NCBI GenBank assembly: GCA_051294375.1
Contig: CM119264.1
Span: 21,609,582-21,673,581, forward strand
Direction of reading: 5' to 3'
Source of the DNA: Paraspadella gotoi
Lineage: Eukaryota > Animalia > Chaetognatha
Length of the DNA: 64,000 nt
In this document: in pieces, positions 8,832 to 63,448 of the stretch
How positions within the stretch are numbered: the first letter of the stretch is position 1
Layout: each line of letters opens with the position of its first letter
Notes under the pieces: generated by a model
Databases searched by the model: none
Seen by the model: only the letters and a program-made list of their open reading frames with translations
Told to the model about the DNA's origin: nothing
Made by a program: the position numbers and the translations under genes

Positions 8832-9285
8832 CAAGTGAATGATGTATGATCTCATGAGCACATTCGGAGAGCTATTACTTAATGATCTGTTTACATTATA
8901 CGCTACGCAGCGATCGTTAAACTTCTCTATTTAAGTGCGCGAGGCGCCCGACTATAAAAATAATCCAATTCGCTTCATTGAATGTGAACTCCAGATCAAA
9001 GTTGTAAAAAAATAGATCGAGAGAAAGATCAAAACTTAGAGATTTATAAAAATGAGGAAAAAAAGAGCAAAAGAGATGAACAGAGAAAACATTTTGGCTC
9101 GATATCCTTTGGTGTCGGAAATATCTTGGAATATCTTGGTGTATTTCCCATGTTGCCTCAACTTGTGAATAAATTTATATGAGTGGGATTGGGAAGCTTT
9201 GAAATTTCTAAACAACCGAAAAAGATAAGCGACCGCGCAAGGAGCATCGGAATTGGCCTCGTGGGAGAGGAAGTGAACGAAAAAG

Positions 9286-9357
<72 letters not shown>

Positions 9358-9949
9358 GGGGGGGCAGGCATTGAAAAAAAGCGACGTCCCCGGTCTTTTG
9401 CCTCGGGGTATTAGTACCAGTTGTAGAGCAACGATCTCCAAAAATTCCATTCAGCGATGAATGGAAAGCGACGACGATGCTGAAGACTGCAACGACGATG
9501 ATGACGACGCTGACAGAGGTGACGGTAAAAAAGGACAACAATTTGTGAAAAAGTTTTTACAATTTTAAATTCGTCACCGTTTTGACTTTGTTAAGAACCA
9601 CTGACGCTCCTATGCCGATGCCGATCCAGCTCTTCCATTCCCGCATTTCCAATATTGTCATTACCTATCAGGCTCCTTGGCAATCAAACCCTTCCCGCAC
9701 CACAGCAAAAATAACTGTCTCCCGACCGATCCACTCCTTCCATGCGTCCTCCCCTCTGTCATCCGCCCTTAACTCAATGGAACCGAAGAACCGGTTCCAT
9801 CCGGCGCCACCCAGCTCGAACCGAGACTCTCTCGGCGAAGAAAAGACGCCTTTCTCCTTCGTCGACGTCGACGAAGGTCGAAGTGTCGAACGCAATTTCG
9901 CGATCTTTCTTTCGTACAAAAAGAGAGAGAGAGAGAGAGAGAGAGAAGA

Positions 9950-9998
<49 letters not shown>

Positions 9999-12900
9999 TA
10001 GCAAATACAGGCAGGAAAACGAGAGGGGAAAAAAACTGAAAAAAATAGCCTCGAATAAAAAGAAAATGCACAGATTTGCCTAAGAGAAGCAGAAAGAGAA
10101 AGAAAGATAAGAAAGAAAAGAAAGAAAGAAAGAAAAGAAAGAAAGAAAGAAGATAAAGAAAGAAAGAAAGAAAGAAAGAAAGAACAACCAACCAAACCAA
10201 CAAGAGTATTTTTTCGTCTCTAGAGATGAATGGGGAACGAGAGACTCATGTCGAGACTGAATGTGAAACGAGATTTCCGTTTTTTTTTTTTTTTTTTTTT
10301 TTTTTTGTTGCGAAGATTTTTCGATGTTGATTTCGCGTTTACATCCTGGGACCACAAGTTTTATTTTCTTCTACAATTTAATTTTAGTAGTACATTGTAG
10401 TGGTAGTATTTCATACCCACTACTCGTCCGAGAATCAGCAGCACCTATGGCGAGGAGGTAGCACGAGGCTCCTCCCAACCCAAAGGACTCGGGTTCGCGC
10501 CCTGCTGATTGACACAAGTAAAAGCGGGACGGGGCGTCTCACCCACCTGTAGTGTCGGACTACAGCCCGATCCGAAGTTCGGGACCTTGTTGTGCAACGG
10601 ACGGTAAACTGCTCGCGGCATCGTCTTCCACATTGGTGAGCCCACACGAACACGCTGGCACGTTAATACACCTCTGCCCGGGCATGTTACCATACCTCTG
10701 CCCTCGACCATCGTGTGTGAAGATGGGAGGAGGAATAGGCAGCCCCTCCTAGAGGGCTCGGGCACAAACGCGTGCATCATAGCCATCACACTTGCGCGGG
10801 TGTGTGATGCCTAGGGGGGATGTGTAGTGGTAGTATTTCATACCCCACTACTCGTCCGAGAATCAGCAGCACCTATGGCGCCGGAGGTAGCACGAGCTCC
10901 TCCAAACCAAAAGACTCGGGTTCGCGCCCTGCTGATTGACACAAGTAAAAGCGGGACGGGGCGTCTAACCCACCTGTAGTGTCGGACTACAGCCCGATCC
11001 GAAGTTCGGGACCTTGTGTGCAACGACGGTAAACTGCTCGCGGCATCGTCTTCCACATTGGTGAGCCCACACGACACGCTGGCACGTTAATACACCTCTG
11101 CCCGGGCAATGTTAACATACCTCTGCCTCGACCATCGTGTGTGAAGATGGGAGGAGGAATAGGCAGCCCCTCCTAGAGTGCTCGGGCACAACGCGTGCAT
11201 CATAGCCATCACACTTGCGCCGGTGTGTGATGCCTAGGGGGGGATGTGTAGTGGTAGTATTTTCATACCCACTACTCGTCCGAGAATCAGCAGCACCTAT
11301 GGCGAAGGAGGTAGCACGAGCTCCTCCCAAACCCAAAAGGACTCGGTACGGTCGTCAAATCGCGCGTCGAACCCCTCGCGTGATTGACTCAAGATCAACA
11401 TCGACGCTCAAGTTGAAGTCGACGGTACGGAGCGTCTAACCTCACAACAGCTCCGTACTTGGTCGGACTTACGAAGGCCTGACACGAGAGTATCGGGACC
11501 TATAGCCGATGCTGACCACGGAAGCCGATAATATCTGCTCGCAAGTTGATGCTGGTCCAGCTGCTTCTTCCATTGGTGAGCCCATCACGAACAGCTGGCA
11601 CGTTAATACACCTCTGCGGGCATGTTAACATCACCTCTGCCCTCGACCATCGGTGTGAAGATGGGAGAGGATAAGGCAGCCCCTCCTAGATGCTCCAGGG
11701 CACACTGCGCTGCATCATTAGCCAATTTCACTTGCGCGCCGGATGTGTGATGCCTAGGGGGGCATGTGTGAGTTGGTAAGTATTTCATACCCCACTACTC
11801 GTCCGAGAATCAGCAGCACCTATGGCGAAGGAGGTAGCACGAGCTCCTCCCAACCCAAAGGACTCGGGTTCGCGCCCTGCTGATTGACACAAGTAAAAGC
11901 GGGACGGGGCGTCTAACCCACCTGTAGTGTCGGACTACAGCCCGATCCGAAGTTCGGGACCTTGTGTGCAACGGACGGTAAACTGCTCGCGGCATCGTCT
12001 TCCACAACATTATAAAATTTTCGTCGGAATTAAATTTATTGATAGTGTAAGGTAAAATGGAAAGAAAGAAAGAAAGAAAGAAAGAAAATAAAAAGGGACA
12101 AAAAAAAAAGAAAGAGAAAGAACGAACAAACAAACGAATGAAAAATGAAAAAAGTTAATATTTTGTTAAAACATCCTTTCCTCGTGTACTTTTCTCGGTG
12201 CTTTTTTACCAAGTGATCATAAACGGAACTCTGGTTAAATTAACCGTCCATTTTACGAGGAGAGAGAACGAGGCGGAAGGCTTTCTTTCCGCCTTGCGAC
12301 GAAATCACAGCCGCCAGGAGAGTCGTTAGGTTTTCTCTCAGAGTTAAGGCTGAGGTAAGGTAAGCGACTCGGACCCGGAGTTGATCTTAAAAAAGGAACC
12401 GTTACTCGGGTTAGTTAAAAGTCCGAAGACTCGCACGTTTGGCGTCGAGTTATTGTGGAGTCTGAAGATGTTGTCGATTATAAAGTCTTTAACTGGCTCG
12501 AACCATTTTTTCGACAAAACTTCAGAATTCGATTTTTTTTCCCACGACTGTAAATTAAGTGTTTATTCAGGAATTTATATTTTTCGACCATCGATGAAAA
12601 AATACAGCGAAACCGACACAACGGGAAACAGAAATTAAAAGTGTTTACTGTTCACTGGTCACTTTACACAGTTAAGTGAAGAGAGATGAACTCAAAACTG
12701 TTTTGAGCAGAGTTGATCCGAAGATGATTTACGAACCGACGGACAAGAAAATAAGTTATTTTGGACGTCACCCCGTCAGACCGTCTTGCAGCCATGATGG
12801 TGAATGGCGCTTAAATTGCCCGAGGCGCTTTTACCAAATCTTATCTTTAATCGCCATCGACCTTGCCACCCACGCGGATAAATTGCCATCGACCGTGCCA

Positions 12901-13907
12901 TCCAGGACTTATATAAGCAAAAAAACCAACCCCCGAAGCCTCAGCGACTCCATGTTTAGGGTCGTCGGTTTCGCCACATCAAAGTCTTTAACGACACCAA
13001 AGCAAAACTTCCCACTTCCCATCGCTTTCGCTTTCCATCGCCAAAACTCGGGGATTATTTTTAGTCTTTCTTGGAGAAACTACACATTTTTCATGTCGAG
13101 GGGGAAAAAAGAAAAATAAAGTCTCTTTGGAAACAAAAGGGGGCGGCGGCGGCGGTGGCGGCGGCGGCGGCTGCGGTAAAGAGCCCCATTCAGTATTTAA
13201 AGTTTTTCTCATCATCATGAGTGAGAATATTAGCCTATCGGCGAGATACAAAACGTCGGCAAAGAGATAATAATAATGAGGCCGCAAATGACGAGGATGA
13301 AGAAATACGATAGGGTATCAATGACGTCTATGGCGACGACAATAATGACGTCAATGGCGACCATAATAGTGAGGTTATAGTCGAAAGGATTGAAGACGAT
13401 GTCGGAAACGGCAATCCTTGATAGGAGACGCTGTCAAGGTAATGGTTGCCGCAAACAAAAATAACCATTGGGCGGAAAAAGTTTTCCAAAAAAATTCTGA
13501 CAGAAGCCTCAAACTCAAAGACTCAAAACAAAATTGACGACGAAAGAAAAACAAAAGACGGCGTTGACGATGAAGACCAAAGAAAACAAAAGGAAGAGTC
13601 GATTTGATAATAGAAAAAAATTAAAAAAGGGAAGTCGACTATGGGAAGACTATGGAAAAACGACGAAGAGAAATAAATAGGCAAAGAACACCAAAAAAAA
13701 ATGGCAAAGATAACTTGAACGGTAACGACGAGATGCAGGACGACGACGACGACGACGATAAGTCGACGATGCCGAAGAAGAAATTATTAAGTTGTTAACG
13801 ACGATTCTCAACAAAGAGGAGAGAGACCTCAAAAACGAACTCTAAAACTCTAAATCGTTTTACACCATTGCGCATGGGATTTCCATAACCTTCTTCCTAG
13901 TCACTCT

Positions 13908-15156: not shown

Positions 15157-18100
15157 AAAAATCCTTCATATAATTCGGAGATATTCAACATCTTCGTAAC
15201 ATTTTGATCTTTTGTCAGTTAATCCGCAACCGCATCTGCCTCCCATTTTCTTTTTCATTCGCTTCACGGCATCCTCCAAGGGCGCTCAAGCTTTCACAAC
15301 CTTTTGCCCTTTTAAGCTCCGTGACGGGCACCAGCACCGAACTCCCATTCCACCTCCATTTGCAAACGCAATCCATGGGCCTTCTCAATTATGGTCTCCT
15401 TCAAAGATTTTGAGAGAAGGACTCGAAAACCAAGACTCCAAAATGCAGCTCCTAACCTCTCGTTACCTCTCGAATATCTACCCTGTTTTCCAACTTCCTT
15501 ACTAACTTGAAGTCCCGGAGTCGAAAATGCTCTCCGTCGGTTTTGTCCAACACCTCGATTCTTCCACCGGGGCTCAACTTCAGAGAGAGAGAGAGAGAGA
15601 GTCAATCGACGACGTCAATGCCGACAAGTTTCTTGTGGCAGATCGCTCAGCAGAAGAAGACCTGGAAGGTCATTTCCCCCATACGGATTCATCGTCGCCC
15701 GAATATTGCTTCCCTCTTCCAAGAGGATGCCAATGTTGTTAATGATGCGAAAACCCAGATATTGTATCACGTCACTCGAAGATAAATATCCGGAAATGCT
15801 CTCGCCCCATCCCAAGCAATTGAACTTGTCCTGGGCTTGGATCCATGCTTGGAGGATTTCAATGCTCCCAGGCCGGTTCATGGCTAATTTCCAAAGAGCC
15901 AGAGGGACATAACAGAAGTTAGTGAACTTTGCAATGCCCTCTACAGCTCTATCGCGAGATTTTTCTTTCTTAATCAGAATTTATGATTACAATTATGGCT
16001 ATAGTTGATAACTGAATAAGTTACGAATAATCTAATCATTGAAAAATAACACTGCAAATTAAAAATCCCACCCTTTTTGTTTTGTTTTGTTTTGTCATGG
16101 TCCCTATTTTTCTCTCTCCCCTCCTTGCTCGACACGCCTCCATCTTCAGTTACCTCCTTCGTCCGGCATTTTTTTTTTGTTTTCCATTTTTCTTTCCTTT
16201 CTACTTTCCCTTACTCGACTCATTGCCCCCTCCTCCATCACCCTTGCCACCCCCCTGTCCCCCCTCGGCCCGTCCCTGTTTTTCTCTCCTCTACAGATAC
16301 GCTCTGATGACGTGGCCGTTCGGCGAGCCTCTTTGCCGTCTCGTGGAGTACGTGCAAACATCAACGGCTTTCGTCTCCATCTACACTCTGATGTTCATGT
16401 CCCTGGAGCGTTACCTGGCGATCACCAGGCCCATCACCAGCATCACCATGCTCACCGCTAGGTGGAGGAATCACGTGACGCGAAGGGAAAAAGAATACGA
16501 ACTAAACGCCTGCATTATTTTCTCCAATTTTAGGCGAACTTACAAACTGGCGATTTCAAGTTGGGTCCTCACCTTCGTCTGCATGATTCCTTACCTCGTC
16601 TACGTGCAGGAGTACAGTTACGTCTATGAAGGAAAAAACCGGACGATTTGCATTAACTCTCTACGAATCCAGTTGAACAAAACGCCGTACAGGTCGGCCG
16701 CCATTTCTTCGTTTCTTATTTTTTTAAAGAAGATCGCTGAGGAATTGTTGGCAGGGGCGGCGATAGGGGGGGACACCCTCGCCTCAGGCGAGGGGCCCGG
16801 GCACCAGGGGGGCCCGGTAGAAGAGAGAAAAAAGAAGGAAAGAAAATATGAAAAAAAGAAGAAAAAAGAAATCAGAAAGGCTGACTAATTCAGACCTTGC
16901 GTTCAGATTGTAAAAAAAGGCACAATGATTTTGATAGAATTTTTCTCATAAAAATGTGTATCTTGAGTAACTTGTTTGAGTGACTCAACTAGTTTCTTGC
17001 CATTTTCTTTATTGTTTTTTTAAAACTTTTTACTATACTGTACAGCCTGTAATGTTTAAACATTAGAGCCATATTTTTTAATATTCGGAAGGTTTGACTA
17101 ATTCAGACCCCTCGCTCAGTCTAGTCTAGGCACAACGATTGTGATTGTGATATATAATCGTATCTCTATTGCCGCTCATGGTTAAAAATAAGCGCTAAAT
17201 CGTTAAATTGCATGTTCAAAAATCCAAACTTTAAATTGATGATTACTAAATAATATTTCCTTATTTATATGTATGAAAGTAGCTAAAGTCTATAAAAGTG
17301 AAAGAAAAAGTAAAATAATATTTATAAACATTATCGATAGCTACATTCATCCGTAATTCCTATCTACACTACAGGGTTTTTCATGCCGTATTTTTGGTGG
17401 CGTCCTATTGCATTCCTTTGAGCTTGATTATTCTCGTGTACTCCTTGCTCATCAGGCGACTCCTCTGCAGGTAAACCGCCTGCTCCTCACGAAAAGCACA
17501 CATGACATTTACAATCACTTTGTATTATGTATTCCTGTCTTAAATTTCTAAATTAACGACCTTCACGTATTTAAACACAGCGGTTCCTTGCAAGAGCTCC
17601 ACGAGGGAGAAGACCGGAAGAGGAAGAAGAAGAGGGGAAAAGAAAAGTTGAGTGAACCCAGCAACGACCGGCAGAGGAATATACGAAAATCGCGACGAAA
17701 AGCCACGAGGATGGTGAGTAAATTTGTGTGTAAATATTTATTTAACCGTTATCAGTATTAACCGCACTGTTTGTCTCATCTAAGTAAAAAATATTAAATA
17801 TCTGACTGCATCTGATTGAATTGTTGCAGTTTTAAAAAATTATGAACTAAGTCTATCTCAATATTCCAGTAAATTTAAAGCGAGAAATATTCTCCACGGT
17901 CCAAATAGGCGAGAGACAATATTCTGGATAAAAGATCGTCAAATGTTATTCTTCCCGTAATATGCAAAATTGAAATTTTAAAGCCTCGGAGCCCGCCATT
18001 TTAGCCTAACTTCTTTATCAGAAATCCATCGCCTTCTTTTTAAAAGGTTCATAATTGAGAATATTCGACGACGAAGCCGAGAAAATGAGACGCCGACGGC

Positions 18101-20540
18101 CCGAACGTTTTTTACGTCGGCCATTAGTCGTCATAGTCGTCGTCGCTTTCGTCGCCGCCGCCACCGTCACCGCCCCTCGCAGCGGCAGATGGCGACTTGT
18201 TTTCTCGAAAAAAAAAAAAAAGGCCATTAGCAGAGACTCGCGAAAAAACGGAGGGTCTGTCAGTCATCGTCTGGAGTCGGCGGCGATGGTTCTTGTTGAT
18301 GTTTTTGCTTTGCAAATTCCACATGTCGCCAAAGGGAATTATACTCGTCTTGGTCGCGTCCTTCAAATTTTTTTGTTGTCGAGAGTGATTTATGATTTTA
18401 CTTTCACGAAGAGAATAGTAGTACTCGTTACTTTTTCCTTTCGCCAAATGGGATCCCTCATTTCTCCCCGCAGTTACACTGTCGCACTCTCCACCCTTAT
18501 TCTCAACCACATTTTTTCCACCTCCCCCCCTTCGCTCCCCAAAAGGTCATTTCTCTGATCCTCATCTTCGTCATCTGCTGGACACCCCTTCAAGTCTTGC
18601 TGGCGGTTGAAGCCTTTACGGATTTGCAAAAGACGGTGTGGATCATCTGGTACCAGATCGCCAGCAACTGCCTGGCCTACATGAACTCGGTGGCCAACCC
18701 GATCGTCTACACTCTGCTTTCGGCCAAATTCAGAAAGGCTTTGAGTCGGCTCACTCTGTGCAAGGGGGACAGGGACGACGTCGTCGTTCTGGCGAGGACG
18801 AACATCATCAAGATGAGATCGAGGGATCAGAACCTCACCGTCGGCTCGCAGGTACTGAGAGGGGAGGTTGGGGTCGGGAAGTAGCTCAAATTCACAGTTC
18901 AGCATATTGCGTAATGCGTATTGCTTAAAACTGAATAACCGAAAAGAAGCCGGGAAGTTGAGTTAGCCAACATGTTCGCTGTTTATACGTATCAGAGATT
19001 AAGAAAAATATCCGCTTTGCAGTTGCGTGTCGATTCATTCTTAACTACATATTATTCTTAATACGATATTAATATATATCTATGGTTGACTTTGATTTGG
19101 GGCAAAGCAAGAATTTCGTTTTAAAATTTTTAACCAAAGGAGACGACGGGATCGCTGATAACGACGACAATATCGGAGAAAAAGCCCCGGATGTTGTGAG
19201 GATGAGTATCGTCGAGAGATTGATACGCGCAATTCAATTGGTGGGTGATGATTGCTCGTCTTTCCTTCTGCTTGCCAAATGAAAGGAAATCTAACGATCC
19301 TTTTTTTTTCTGGATGGCTTGGGGCTTATGGTTTACAATCACGGCGCTCAACATTTGCATCTATCGCTTTTCATCTCTAATATCTCTGACACCGTCCTAT
19401 GTTTTAATTCCTAGCTTTTAGATGAAGCTTCGTGAACACTAATTTTTTAAAATTTTTATATTCTTTCACCAAACTATTGATCTCATGCACAATAAACAAA
19501 ACCCGCAAAACTACTTCTATTCTTATTATTTCAATCTAAAAGCTTTTTGTCTTTTTGTTTGTGGAGAAACTCAATAAGTCACTTTTCGGTCGGTCTGTCG
19601 TTCTGTCTGTCGGTATGTCTGTCCGTCGGTCTGTCCCACTAACGTTAAAAATGCATATAATTCGCCTATAGTAGGTTGCTCATTTGTTAAAACAGGAAAA
19701 AAACAGTGCATGTCATAAATACAAGGATCATGTCATGTCATATAATGTGGAAATACTCGTGAAAATAAAGTCACTGCGGTGAAACACTTTGTAATCACCG
19801 TTCTTTTTATTATGCGTCTAACCTGCTCTGACAAGAATATCTATGAAACTATCATTGATATAAATTTTCTTTTGTATACAGCTGTATGTACAATCCAGAT
19901 TGCTCGGAATGTGATGCCACAATACTCTTGTTTTCATCTTTATTGGGTTTTTGATTATTTAGTAACATAGTTCCACTGTTTCTGATCAAAAGAAATACTT
20001 TTTATTTCATAAATTTTTTCTCGATGAGCGAACGACCTTTTATTAAAATCTTTCGCTGGAAAATGTCATTTCGATTTACACCAGTAAAAAAATTTCATTT
20101 CTCTAACTCAGTTTCCACAGCGTTTCCTATGTTTTGATTTCTTTTCCATAATAATGTTTTCGTTTCTTCTTCTATCTCCCAATCTCGATCAGGTCTTGGA
20201 GACGGGAGGTCAAAGGTCGCCGATGATCGTGGTGGCGCCGCGACCCGCCGCCTCCGCCGCCCCCGACATCGGAGCTCAAATATGTCGTCAAGAGGAAAGG
20301 AATTCGATCAAGTCGACGCTGGCGCTGCGGTTCGGCGGCGGAGGAGGAGGAACGGTCGGAAACGCCGGGGGGCGCTCCAGTCGCGCCGAGTCGTCGGATC
20401 AGCGATCCGGCGCTTCGGGGGCGTCGGGGGCGTCGGCAACAGTCGCTGCTTCGCCAGGCGTTCAAGACGACGCCGACTCTTTCGGCTCCAAGCATAAAAA
20501 TTGGGAGAAGATGAACGGATTTCAAAAGTGTAACATATGA
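3928..20540 (+). CDS. Rhodopsin-class neuropeptide GPCR, allatostatin-A/galanin receptor-like (9 coding exons)
   Basis: Exons 3928-4116, 4688-4784, 8312-8450, 16297-16461, 16534-16692, 17375-17470, 17581-17713, 18546-18851, 20193-20540 join in frame at GT-AG sites. Motifs: TM1 GLAAN, TM2 [21 protein letters not shown]5 YCIPL, TM6 FVICWTP, TM7 [13 protein letters not shown]. Subfamily inferred from motif resemblance only. Confidence 0.88.
4688..4784 (+). CDS. GPCR exon 2 (start of TM1)
   Basis: AG|[33 protein letters not shown]|GTGAG. Confidence 0.85.
5637..5805. repeat. GC-rich minisatellite (~36-51 bp units)
   Basis: GGCGGTGGTGATAGGGGCGG...CAGAGGTGGCG x4. Confidence 0.85.
8312..8450 (+). 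CDS. GPCR exon 3 (TM1-TM2)
   Basis: [45 protein letters not shown]; CAG and GTGAG flanks. Confidence 0.92.
10512..10594 (+). ncRNA. Twister ribozyme (type P5) copy 1, cleavage-site variant UCA
   Basis: Same fold as copy 2, but TAA is replaced by TCA at 10539-10541. Confidence 0.6.
10862..10936 (+). ncRNA. tRNA-derived Pol III head of array unit 2 (other copies at ~10434, ~11286, ~11809)
   Basis: A and B boxes at tRNA spacing; CTCCCAA anticodon-like loop in copies 1, 3 and 4; domain closed by ATCAGCAG/CTGCTGAT stem; not a functional tRNA. Confidence 0.7.
10939..11019 (+). ncRNA. Twister ribozyme (type P5) copy 2, intact
   Basis: P5 ACACAAG/CTTGTGT; GA-CGG; T^AA at 10966/10967; ACC; P3 CTGTAG/CTACAG; P4 CCCGA/TCGGG with loop TCCGAAGT; pseudoknots CCG:CGG and AC:GT. 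Confidence 0.8.
11887..11967 (+). ncRNA. Twister ribozyme (type P5) copy 4, intact
   Basis: Same sequence as copy 2; predicted cleavage at 11914/11915. Confidence 0.8.
15073..15157. repeat. (GAAA)n microsatellite
   Basis: Pure tetranucleotide run; many (AG)n tracts also occur, e.g. 28606-28740, 42440-42554, 57770-57895. Confidence 0.95.
16297..16461 (+). CDS. GPCR exon 4 (ECL1-TM3, ERY)
   Basis: [45 protein letters not shown]. Confidence 0.92.
   Translation: MRSDDVAVRRASLPSRGVRANINGFRLHLHSDVHVPGALPGDHQAHHQHHHAHR
16534..16692 (+). CDS. GPCR exon 5 (TM4-ECL2)
   Basis: [23 protein letters not shown]...KNRTICIN; TTTAG acceptor, GT donor. Confidence 0.88.
16752..17180. mobile_element. Old MITE-like DNA transposon remnant in GPCR intron 5
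   Basis: CAGGGGCGGCGATAG.. left end and imperfect inverted right end ..CTATTGCCGCTCATG (13/18 identical); no clear TSD. Confidence 0.3.
17375..17470 (+). CDS. GPCR exon 6 (TM5)
   Basis: [31 protein letters not shown]; CAG and GTAAA flanks. Confidence 0.9.
17581..17713 (+). CDS. GPCR exon 7 (basic ICL3)
   Basis: [44 protein letters not shown]|GTGAGT. Confidence 0.85.
18546..18851 (+). CDS. GPCR exon 8 (TM6-TM7-helix 8)
   Basis: [17 protein letters not shown]...[30 protein letters not shown]; may alternatively read on to TAG at 18884. Confidence 0.9.
19555..19805 (+). mobile_element. Helentron/DINE-1-like element, copy b
   Basis: ATAAGTCACTTTTCGGTCGGTCTGTC..., AAAAATGCATATAATT, ends CACCGTTCTTT. 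Confidence 0.65.
20193..20540 (+). CDS. GPCR probable last exon (C-terminal tail)
   Basis: Pyrimidine tract + CAG, phase 0 matches donor at 18852; open GC-rich frame [10 protein letters not shown]...GFQKCNI*. Confidence 0.55.
   Translation, partial: VLETGGQRSPMIVVAPRPAASAAPDIGAQICRQEERNSIKSTLALRFGGGGGGTVGNAGGRSSRAESSDQRSGASGASGASATVAASPGVQDDADSFGSKHKNWEKMNGFQKCNI

Positions 20541-24057: not shown

Positions 24058-63448
<39,391 letters not shown>

Follow-up and report, generated by a model that had tools for sequence, protein, structure and literature searches.

Architecture of the array

The stretch of Paraspadella gotoi DNA analysed here (64,000 nucleotides of contig CM119264.1, positions 21,609,582 to 21,673,581; the window) contains a tandem repeat at 10396-12006. 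An earlier, sequence-only reading had described it as a head-to-tail array of ~427-bp units, each with a tRNA-like promoter followed by a twister ribozyme, and had explained it as a SINE-like (short interspersed nuclear element) unit multiplied by a partner LINE (long interspersed nuclear element). The array is indeed present, with unit starts at 10396, 10823, 11247 and 11767 (spacing of 427, 424 and 520 bp), and its order is long terminal repeat (LTR)-interior-LTR-interior-LTR-interior-LTR, with four LTRs and three interiors (Table 1). It can be seen that all four LTRs begin with TGT and that the three clean copies end with ACA (at 10632, 11057 and 12006). The longest ATG-started frame in the unit has 57 codons, and the unit is thus non-coding; a short interior without coding capacity, enclosed by terminal repeats in direct orientation that have TG..CA ends, all within less than 1 kb, is what characterizes a terminal-repeat retrotransposon in miniature (TRIM). 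All three interiors open with a segment resembling a primer-binding site (PBS), TTGGTGAGCCC, which starts with TGG, and close with a polypurine tract (PPT) of the form AG6-7, the purine run stopping two to four bases 5' of the following LTR. From TGG onward, nine of the first ten letters of the PBS-like segment agree with the tRNA-Trp PBS (Kojima 2024 Fig. S2, PMC10886601). In addition, ACAT directly flanks the array on both sides (the chance for two local 4-mers is ~0.02), and the second insertion in the window, a solo LTR, is flanked by TACC, so that 4-bp target-site duplications were found at two of two insertions. By its anatomy the array belongs to the non-autonomous LTR retrotransposons, as a tandem TRIM of the Helenus type. 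The different phases of the unit at which the array starts and stops, remarked on before, are real and are explained by the LTR with which it both begins and finishes. LTR3 holds 94 extra bases in 44 runs, which look like uncorrected long-read noise; otherwise the array copies differ mostly by insertions and deletions.

Table 1. Features of the array and the solo LTR in the window
Feature	Position	Strand	Remarks
Left target-site duplication ACAT	10392..10395	+	identical to 12007-12010
LTR1, 237 bp, TGT..ACA	10396..10632	+	twister copy with C for A just past the predicted cut (10540)
Internal part 1, 190 bp, non-coding	10633..10822	+	PBS-like TTGGTGAGCCC 10633-10643, PPT 10813-10820
LTR2, 235 bp	10823..11057	+	motif set intact; contig loose ends at 10823 and 10632/11057
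LTR 5' terminal hairpin	10824..10851	+	predicted fold; the solo LTR also has a hairpin here, with other letters
tRNA-like segment	10861..10937	+	box A-like TGGCGCCGGAGG 10876-10887, box B-like GGTTCGCGCCC 10919-10929, 9-bp closing stem
Type-P5 twister-like fold	10939..11019	+	predicted cut 10966/10967; at the P1 position a self-complementary 6-mer 10960-10965
Internal part 2, 189 bp	11058..11246	+	PBS 11058-11068, PPT 11236-11244
LTR3	11247..11572	+	garbled copy; 44 runs of extra bases (94 in all), probably sequencing noise
Internal part 3, 194 bp	11573..11766	+	PBS 11573-11583, PPT 11756-11762
LTR4, 240 bp	11767..12006	+	twister fold intact 11887-11967, predicted cut 11914/11915
Right target-site duplication ACAT	12007..12010	+
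Divergent solo LTR, 234 bp, TA..CA	49974..50207	+	TACC at 49970-73 and 50208-11; tRNA-like boxes, decayed twister ~50081-50150

Copies of the element in public contigs

Part of the array unit is contained in nine public sequencing runs of one organism from three studies; four of these runs were aligned as contigs. Loose ends of these contigs cluster just before 10823 (16, 12, 15 and 5 contigs in the four runs) and just behind 10632 or 11057 (16, 10 and 11 contigs in three runs), and the flanks beyond them are unrelated and AT-rich, with an agreement of only 0.44-0.52. Breaks at the LTR edges into unrelated flanks indicate that the family is abundant and dispersed and that its members end with the LTR. 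The summed contig depth, which is not a copy number, is several-fold greater in most of the LTR than in the interior. The left flank of the array has zero cover in the four runs and none of the listed contigs spans interior-LTR-interior, so that the number of units at this site is provisional. All four array LTRs carry G at the position (10511/10938) where nearly all public contigs have C. Among the 52 open frames of at least 130 codons in the window, none matched a reverse transcriptase or integrase family.

Low-depth contig variants were also observed in which the twister domain is deleted or replaced, at 10522-10596 and nearby, with skips of 73-95 bases, and in a few contigs the tRNA-like head is followed by an A-run near 10522. 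These variants are possibly twister-less or SINE-like derivatives.

The tRNA-like segment of the LTR

Each array LTR contains a box A-like TGGCG..GG and a box B-like GGTTCGCGCCC, as had been claimed for every unit. Box A reads TGGCG..AGG in the array and TGGTG..AGG in the solo LTR, a near match to TRGCY..YGG of Helenus, and the GGTTC of box B is present. The box B letters of the array LTR are the same as those in the sturgeon element Helenus-1_AcRu. The tRNA-like part is common to the array and solo LTR subfamilies at 49/75 identity. ARAGORN called no tRNA gene in the window, and a functional tRNA gene was rejected on this ground. The reported lack of a T4 terminator for RNA polymerase III (Pol III) holds for the clean units on the + strand; the noisy copy has a single TTTT, at 11260. 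Beyond the array, a TTTT first occurs on the same strand ~11 bases after its end.

A twister-type fold behind the tRNA-like segment

The segment that follows the tRNA-like part can be folded as a twister of type P5. In LTR2 its elements are P5 (10939-45/11013-19), GA-CGG (10955-59), T^AA (10966-68), AC (10972-73), P3 (10974-92), P4 (10993-97/11006-10) and the loop TCCGAAGT (10998-11005). The core letters U^AA, GA and U..AA, together with the pseudoknots T1 (3 bp) and T2 (2 bp), are present in LTR2 and LTR4. The sequence-only reading had assigned all core elements to each unit, which is correct for these two LTRs and incorrect for LTR1, which is without the first A of U^AA, and for the garbled LTR3. 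A descriptor of the motif, which was composed after the motif had been seen, fixes only seven letters and leaves both pseudoknots free to vary, matched LTR2 and LTR4 only in the window, and matched 2 of 312,067 dinucleotide shuffles of the unit on both strands. P3, P4 (5 bp) and P5 all form in the predicted structures, with unremarkable folding z-scores of -1.6 for the twister and -1.1 for the unit.

The compensatory changes that had been noticed in both pseudoknots relative to the canonical twister were borne out. They correspond to G13A/C31U and C27G/G47C in the numbering of rice Osa-1-4, and published mutagenesis shows that either swap restores activity. In the Osa-1-4 double-mutant matrix of Kobori and Yokobayashi, where the swaps were tested singly in a scaffold other than the array twister, G13A/C31U scores 0.89 and C27G/G47C 0.86 of wild type, while the single changes score ~0.17 and ~0.13 (columns counted in text derived from the PDF).

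Variation among the public contigs was compared with the fold. Twelve variant rows reach at least 1% in the twister: seven lie in the P3 loop or its weak closing pair, three leave G-U pairs, one breaks a P3 pair and one falls on the A after the cut site. None at this level touches a pseudoknot letter. The same A>C after the cut site as in LTR1 is carried by contigs of low share. Among the contig loose ends, a subfamily was found with both P5 strands changed and complementary over 6 bp, three of the pairs being double-sided; that the two ends belong to the same contigs was deduced from a contig aligned over exactly 10949-11007.

The short P2 had been a caveat of the earlier reading. It is largely removed, because a 3-nt P2 strand occurs in 67 of the 94 natural type-P5 twisters that were parsed, counted after dropping rows with fewer than two leading P2 pairs or fewer than three P4 pairs. 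The parallel worry about P1 stands. Among a set of 99 distinct matches 30 were unparsed, and 64 of the other 69, mostly of type P1, have a 4-nt P2 strand. Pattern scans for relatives gave no match in viral sequences, 17 matches in metagenomes, none similar to the unit or with full stems, and 28 in prokaryote genomes, none with the twister loop. With a first canonical pattern (4-nt P2, no P4 letters), none of 99 viral matches passed a filter on P2 and P4. A hammerhead or a ribozyme like that of hepatitis delta virus, on either strand, was rejected on the basis of Rfam, without a match, and of inspection by eye; no hammerhead family occurs among the Rfam matches at E<=10 in 9000-13500.

Two observations were made on the natural type-P5 twisters of phages. 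In several phage contigs they form clusters of 3-7, a few hundred bases apart. Many precede a Shine-Dalgarno-like GGAG plus start, and most have a 3-bp P2 where the Rfam consensus has 4.

The divergent solo LTR and covariation

A covariance model was built from only nine phage type-P5 twisters with a P3 stem and used in an unfiltered search of the window. The segment 50069-50148 ranked first (17.5 bits, E 0.07), LTR2 and LTR4 came next (13.6 bits, E 0.4) and LTR1 was fifth of ten matches; E values of 0.07 and 0.4 are weak alone. The first-ranked segment lies in a divergent solo LTR that blastn had not picked up and that sits in a Rab-like gene, 53 bases into its first intron (exon 49797-49920). 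The solo and array LTRs are identical at 131 of 221 positions (59%), with a local alignment score of 101 against 20 +/- 3 (maximum 38) in 1000 shuffles. Identity amounts to 40/57 in the twister core and 19/46 in the LTR tail. Over 20 named pairs, the two subfamilies differ by four double-sided changes (T2, P3 twice and P4) and two one-sided ones. The T2 pair is the canonical G-C in the solo LTR and A-U in the array.

Comparison with known systems

Helenus elements are TRIMs that have A and B boxes in their LTRs, show duplications of 4 bp in animals and are probably mobilised by Gypsy (Kojima 2024, PMC10886601). Like Helenus and TRIMp3, the array element (~660 bp) is non-coding and shorter than 1 kb, and it shares with Helenus the tRNA-like boxes inside TG..CA LTRs, the PBS, the PPT, the 4-bp duplication and the occurrence of tandem arrays (LTR-11_DR). 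Most of the Helenus consensus LTRs examined have a short, often T-rich tail after the tRNA-like part, a few, among them those of ctenophore and sturgeon, being longer. In contrast, the array LTR continues for ~120 bases with the twister fold and no T4. Neither twister nor self-cleavage is mentioned by Kojima 2024, and searches of the Helenus consensus file for twister loop motifs found no twister context, although motifs split by line breaks in this file can be overlooked.

Plant LTR retrozymes (Cervera et al. 2016, PMC4918200) resemble the array element in carrying a ribozyme in each LTR, a PBS, a PPT and a 4-bp duplication, and in having no coding capacity, solo LTRs and multimers; a circle and mobilisation by Ty3-gypsy were proposed for them. 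They differ in their type III hammerheads, RNAs of 600-1000 nt and tRNA-Met PBS, and cleavage and circles were demonstrated there, whereas the array, which belongs to an animal, has a predicted twister-type fold and a putative tRNA-like internal promoter. Because this fold stands in place of the hammerhead, the array may work like a retrozyme and yet is not one as defined. The Schistosoma Sm-alpha and animal non-LTR retrozymes (PMC6765202, PMC7229834, PMC7761336) likewise place a Pol III promoter before a self-cleaving ribozyme in tandem units of a few hundred bases, but with hammerheads, without LTR, PBS or PPT, and with longer duplications. The T-variant twisters of Perere-3/RTE elements (Liu et al. 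2021, PMC8501958) share with the array a retroelement context, a weak P1 and a P3 starting CUGUAG; unlike it, they are of type P1 and occur as one copy at the 5' end of an autonomous non-LTR element. Cassandra (PMC7215508) is a TRIM whose LTR contains a Pol III promoter and whose LTRs and internal parts form long arrays, discussed as products of recombination or template switching; it is 5S-derived, belongs to plants, and no ribozyme is mentioned for it in the available text. With the type-P5 twisters of Rfam (RF02684) the array fold has in common the order of the elements, U^AA, GA, the UxxxAAxx loop, pairable pseudoknots and the 3-nt P2 strand. It differs in the absent P1 hairpin, the C-C in P2, one swapped pair per pseudoknot, the presence of a 7-bp P5 and a P3, and a score below Rfam detection.

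In reviews, retrozymes are either plant LTR elements or animal non-LTR repeats, both with hammerheads (PMC7229834). No twister in an LTR retrotransposon or TRIM was found in the literature that was searched, though subscription journals, Repbase, the supplements of Liu 2021 and Cervera 2016 and the tables of Roth 2014 may hold one. The array is thus anatomically a Helenus-type TRIM that likely works like an LTR retrozyme, with a ribozyme class that is new in that role.

A possible replication cycle and its alternatives

We regard it as somewhat probable that this tandem TRIM, whose LTR combines tRNA-like boxes with a twister-type fold, works as an animal LTR retrozyme mobilised by a Gypsy-type partner. 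The LTR anatomy, the target-site duplications, the dispersed copies and the twister fold with its covariation are observed, and the steps that follow are proposed on top of them. In such a cycle, Pol III would start at the tRNA-like head in one LTR and continue across the LTR that comes next. Cuts at U^A by the twisters in consecutive LTRs would then release a ~425-nt unit-length RNA, which a host ligase could close into a circle; RtcB efficiently circularises animal hammerhead retrozymes in vitro (PMC7229834). As the cut lies 3' of the promoter, the monomer would have the promoter at its 3' end, to be rebuilt in each LTR. A tRNA, Trp-like by the PBS, may prime a Gypsy-type reverse transcriptase able to go round more than once, and integrase may insert solo, single or multimeric products, in line with the model for plant retrozymes (PMC4918200). 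The unit-length RNA and circles of the sequence-only reading are thus plausible. If true, the proposal crosses both divisions of retrozymes, joining an animal LTR element to a different ribozyme class, and implies more than one origin of the circle route in LTR retrotransposition, with ribozymes interchangeable in it. It would also answer how a terminator-less Pol III TRIM sets its RNA ends and would give twisters a new biological role. A natural twister below Rfam detection would mean that such families are probably under-counted.

A number of results weigh against this proposal. Rfam scans of the array and the solo LTR gave only chance matches; the twister models, whose scan had been suggested as a check, matched neither (for the array at E<=10), while 20 of 20 natural type-P5 twisters used as a positive control matched Rfam Twister-P5, 19 of them above the gathering score. 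The consensus of this model has an 8-bp P1 hairpin, no P3 and canonical pseudoknot letters, and these expectations may be the reason for the miss. The P1 segment of the array has 6 nt and ~1 bp, whereas all 95 natural type-P5 twisters from phages have at least 14 nt and at least 5 bp. P1 has been reported to be dispensable, yet cleavage without it is inefficient (Liu 2021, PMC8501958). In P2 two of three pairs form (with a C-C mismatch), compared with three pairs in all 67 natural 3-nt cases. When a single LTR was folded, with the pseudoknots outside the model, a rival GGG/CCC hairpin reached p 0.59 and P2 p 0.01. In the solo LTR two of the three T1 pairs are broken and P2 is damaged, one of its pairs falling on a gap, and the covariation rests on two subfamilies only, not on many events. 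Some public contigs delete the twister domain at a depth of 25-76, from which it follows that twister-less copies exist. The box A of LTR2 differs from that of LTR1, LTR3 and LTR4, which a single round on a single circle would not produce, barring an assembly effect. Box B has C at a position that is usually A in tRNA genes.

Because a self-complementary 6-mer is all that occupies the place of P1, cutting may need two copies that swap halves. The 6-mer is self-complementary, G-U included, in both subfamilies. In the predicted fold of a two-LTR transcript the 6-mers are paired in trans at p 0.79 and P5 is swapped at 0.80 and 0.43; the co-fold of two free copies is 11 kcal/mol lower than that of two monomers. 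In 25 non-palindromic permutations of the 6-mer the mean swap was 0.17, with three above 0.5. Doubt is cast on the dimer by several features of the same models: the palindrome is weak evidence, since 24 of 60 permutations of the 6-mer letters would be self-complementary too and the pair always survives a C/U change opposite G; the lowest-energy dimer moves P2 onto the catalytic G; and in monomer and dimer models alike GGG/CCC prefers a shifted pairing, with which the active fold could not form (pseudoknots unmodelled). That a P1-less twister cuts only as a half-swapped dimer is put forward as a hypothesis. If it held, only two-LTR transcripts would be cut to unit-length RNA, and the ends would be held together for circularisation. 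The full version of the proposal, namely the first animal LTR retrozyme and first twister LTR retrotransposon, a Pol III-driven TRIM with a P1-less twister cutting only as such a dimer, is less probable than not.

The array may, with a lesser though real chance, be an ordinary Helenus-type TRIM whose real twister is now slow, dead or only trims 3' read-through, with a linear RNA, normal strand transfer, and an array made by unequal LTR-LTR recombination or template switching. The missing P1, the C-C mismatch, the competing hairpin, the deletion copies and the deviating box A of LTR2 all agree with this, the excess of LTR over internal depth suggests mostly solo LTRs, and Cassandra and LTR-11_DR arrays are common with no ribozyme reported, a further point against a ribozyme-driven cycle. 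On the other side, the double-sided changes in T2, P3, P4 and P5 and the unvarying pseudoknot letters imply selection on the tertiary fold, and efficient cutting in both LTRs would remove the terminal repeat needed for linear strand transfer (PMC4918200). It is very improbable that the hairpins of a structured LTR look like a twister by chance: against the absent Rfam match, the phage-model E values and the post hoc descriptor stand the rarity of descriptor matches among shuffles, a solo LTR found independently with canonical T2 letters, and the metagenome and prokaryote pattern matches, of which 0/17 and 0/28 show the full stem set or loop.

For a real element, assembly may nevertheless have made part of the four-LTR array out of an insertion of one or two units, a rather unlikely explanation that is compatible with the retrozyme-like reading. 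The indel-type differences between copies, the insertion-ridden LTR3, the uncovered left flank and the want of a listed contig across interior-LTR-interior would fit it, whereas the matching duplication at both outer ends, the G common to all four LTRs and the fact that tandem TRIMs are well known do not. Least probable of all is the original proposal of a tRNA-headed, SINE-like twister unit multiplied by a partner LINE into a concatemer, a non-LTR retrozyme like Sm-alpha, which is largely refuted. The promoter-then-ribozyme tandem order is that of Sm-alpha (PMC6765202), twisters are known at the 5' ends of RTE-type LINEs (PMC8501958), and the few A-run contigs could be read in its favour. It is contradicted by the TG..CA LTRs, the PBS, the PPT and the 4-bp duplications at two insertions, and by contigs that stop at the LTR edges, not at the cut site; animal non-LTR retrozymes are without LTR, PBS and PPT and have longer duplications (PMC7229834). 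Taken together, these features point to the reverse transcriptase and integrase of an LTR retrotransposon. A LINE-type insertion was rejected. The traits of SINEs and non-LTR retrozymes (no LTR, PBS or PPT, a long variable duplication or an A-rich tail) are not those of the array.

Other features of the window

Exons of a rhodopsin-family G-protein-coupled receptor lie at 16043-18881 on the + strand. On the - strand, ~27600-63750 contains exons with Ig, fn3 and kinase domains, which we take to be a twitchin/projectin-like giant gene; the Rab-like gene on the + strand appears to lie inside its span. These three spliced genes speak for an animal host. Two further tandem repeats were seen, a GC-rich one of 101 bp with 4.8 copies at 37597-38087 and an ACCCTA-rich, telomere-like one of 13 bp at 40308-40408.

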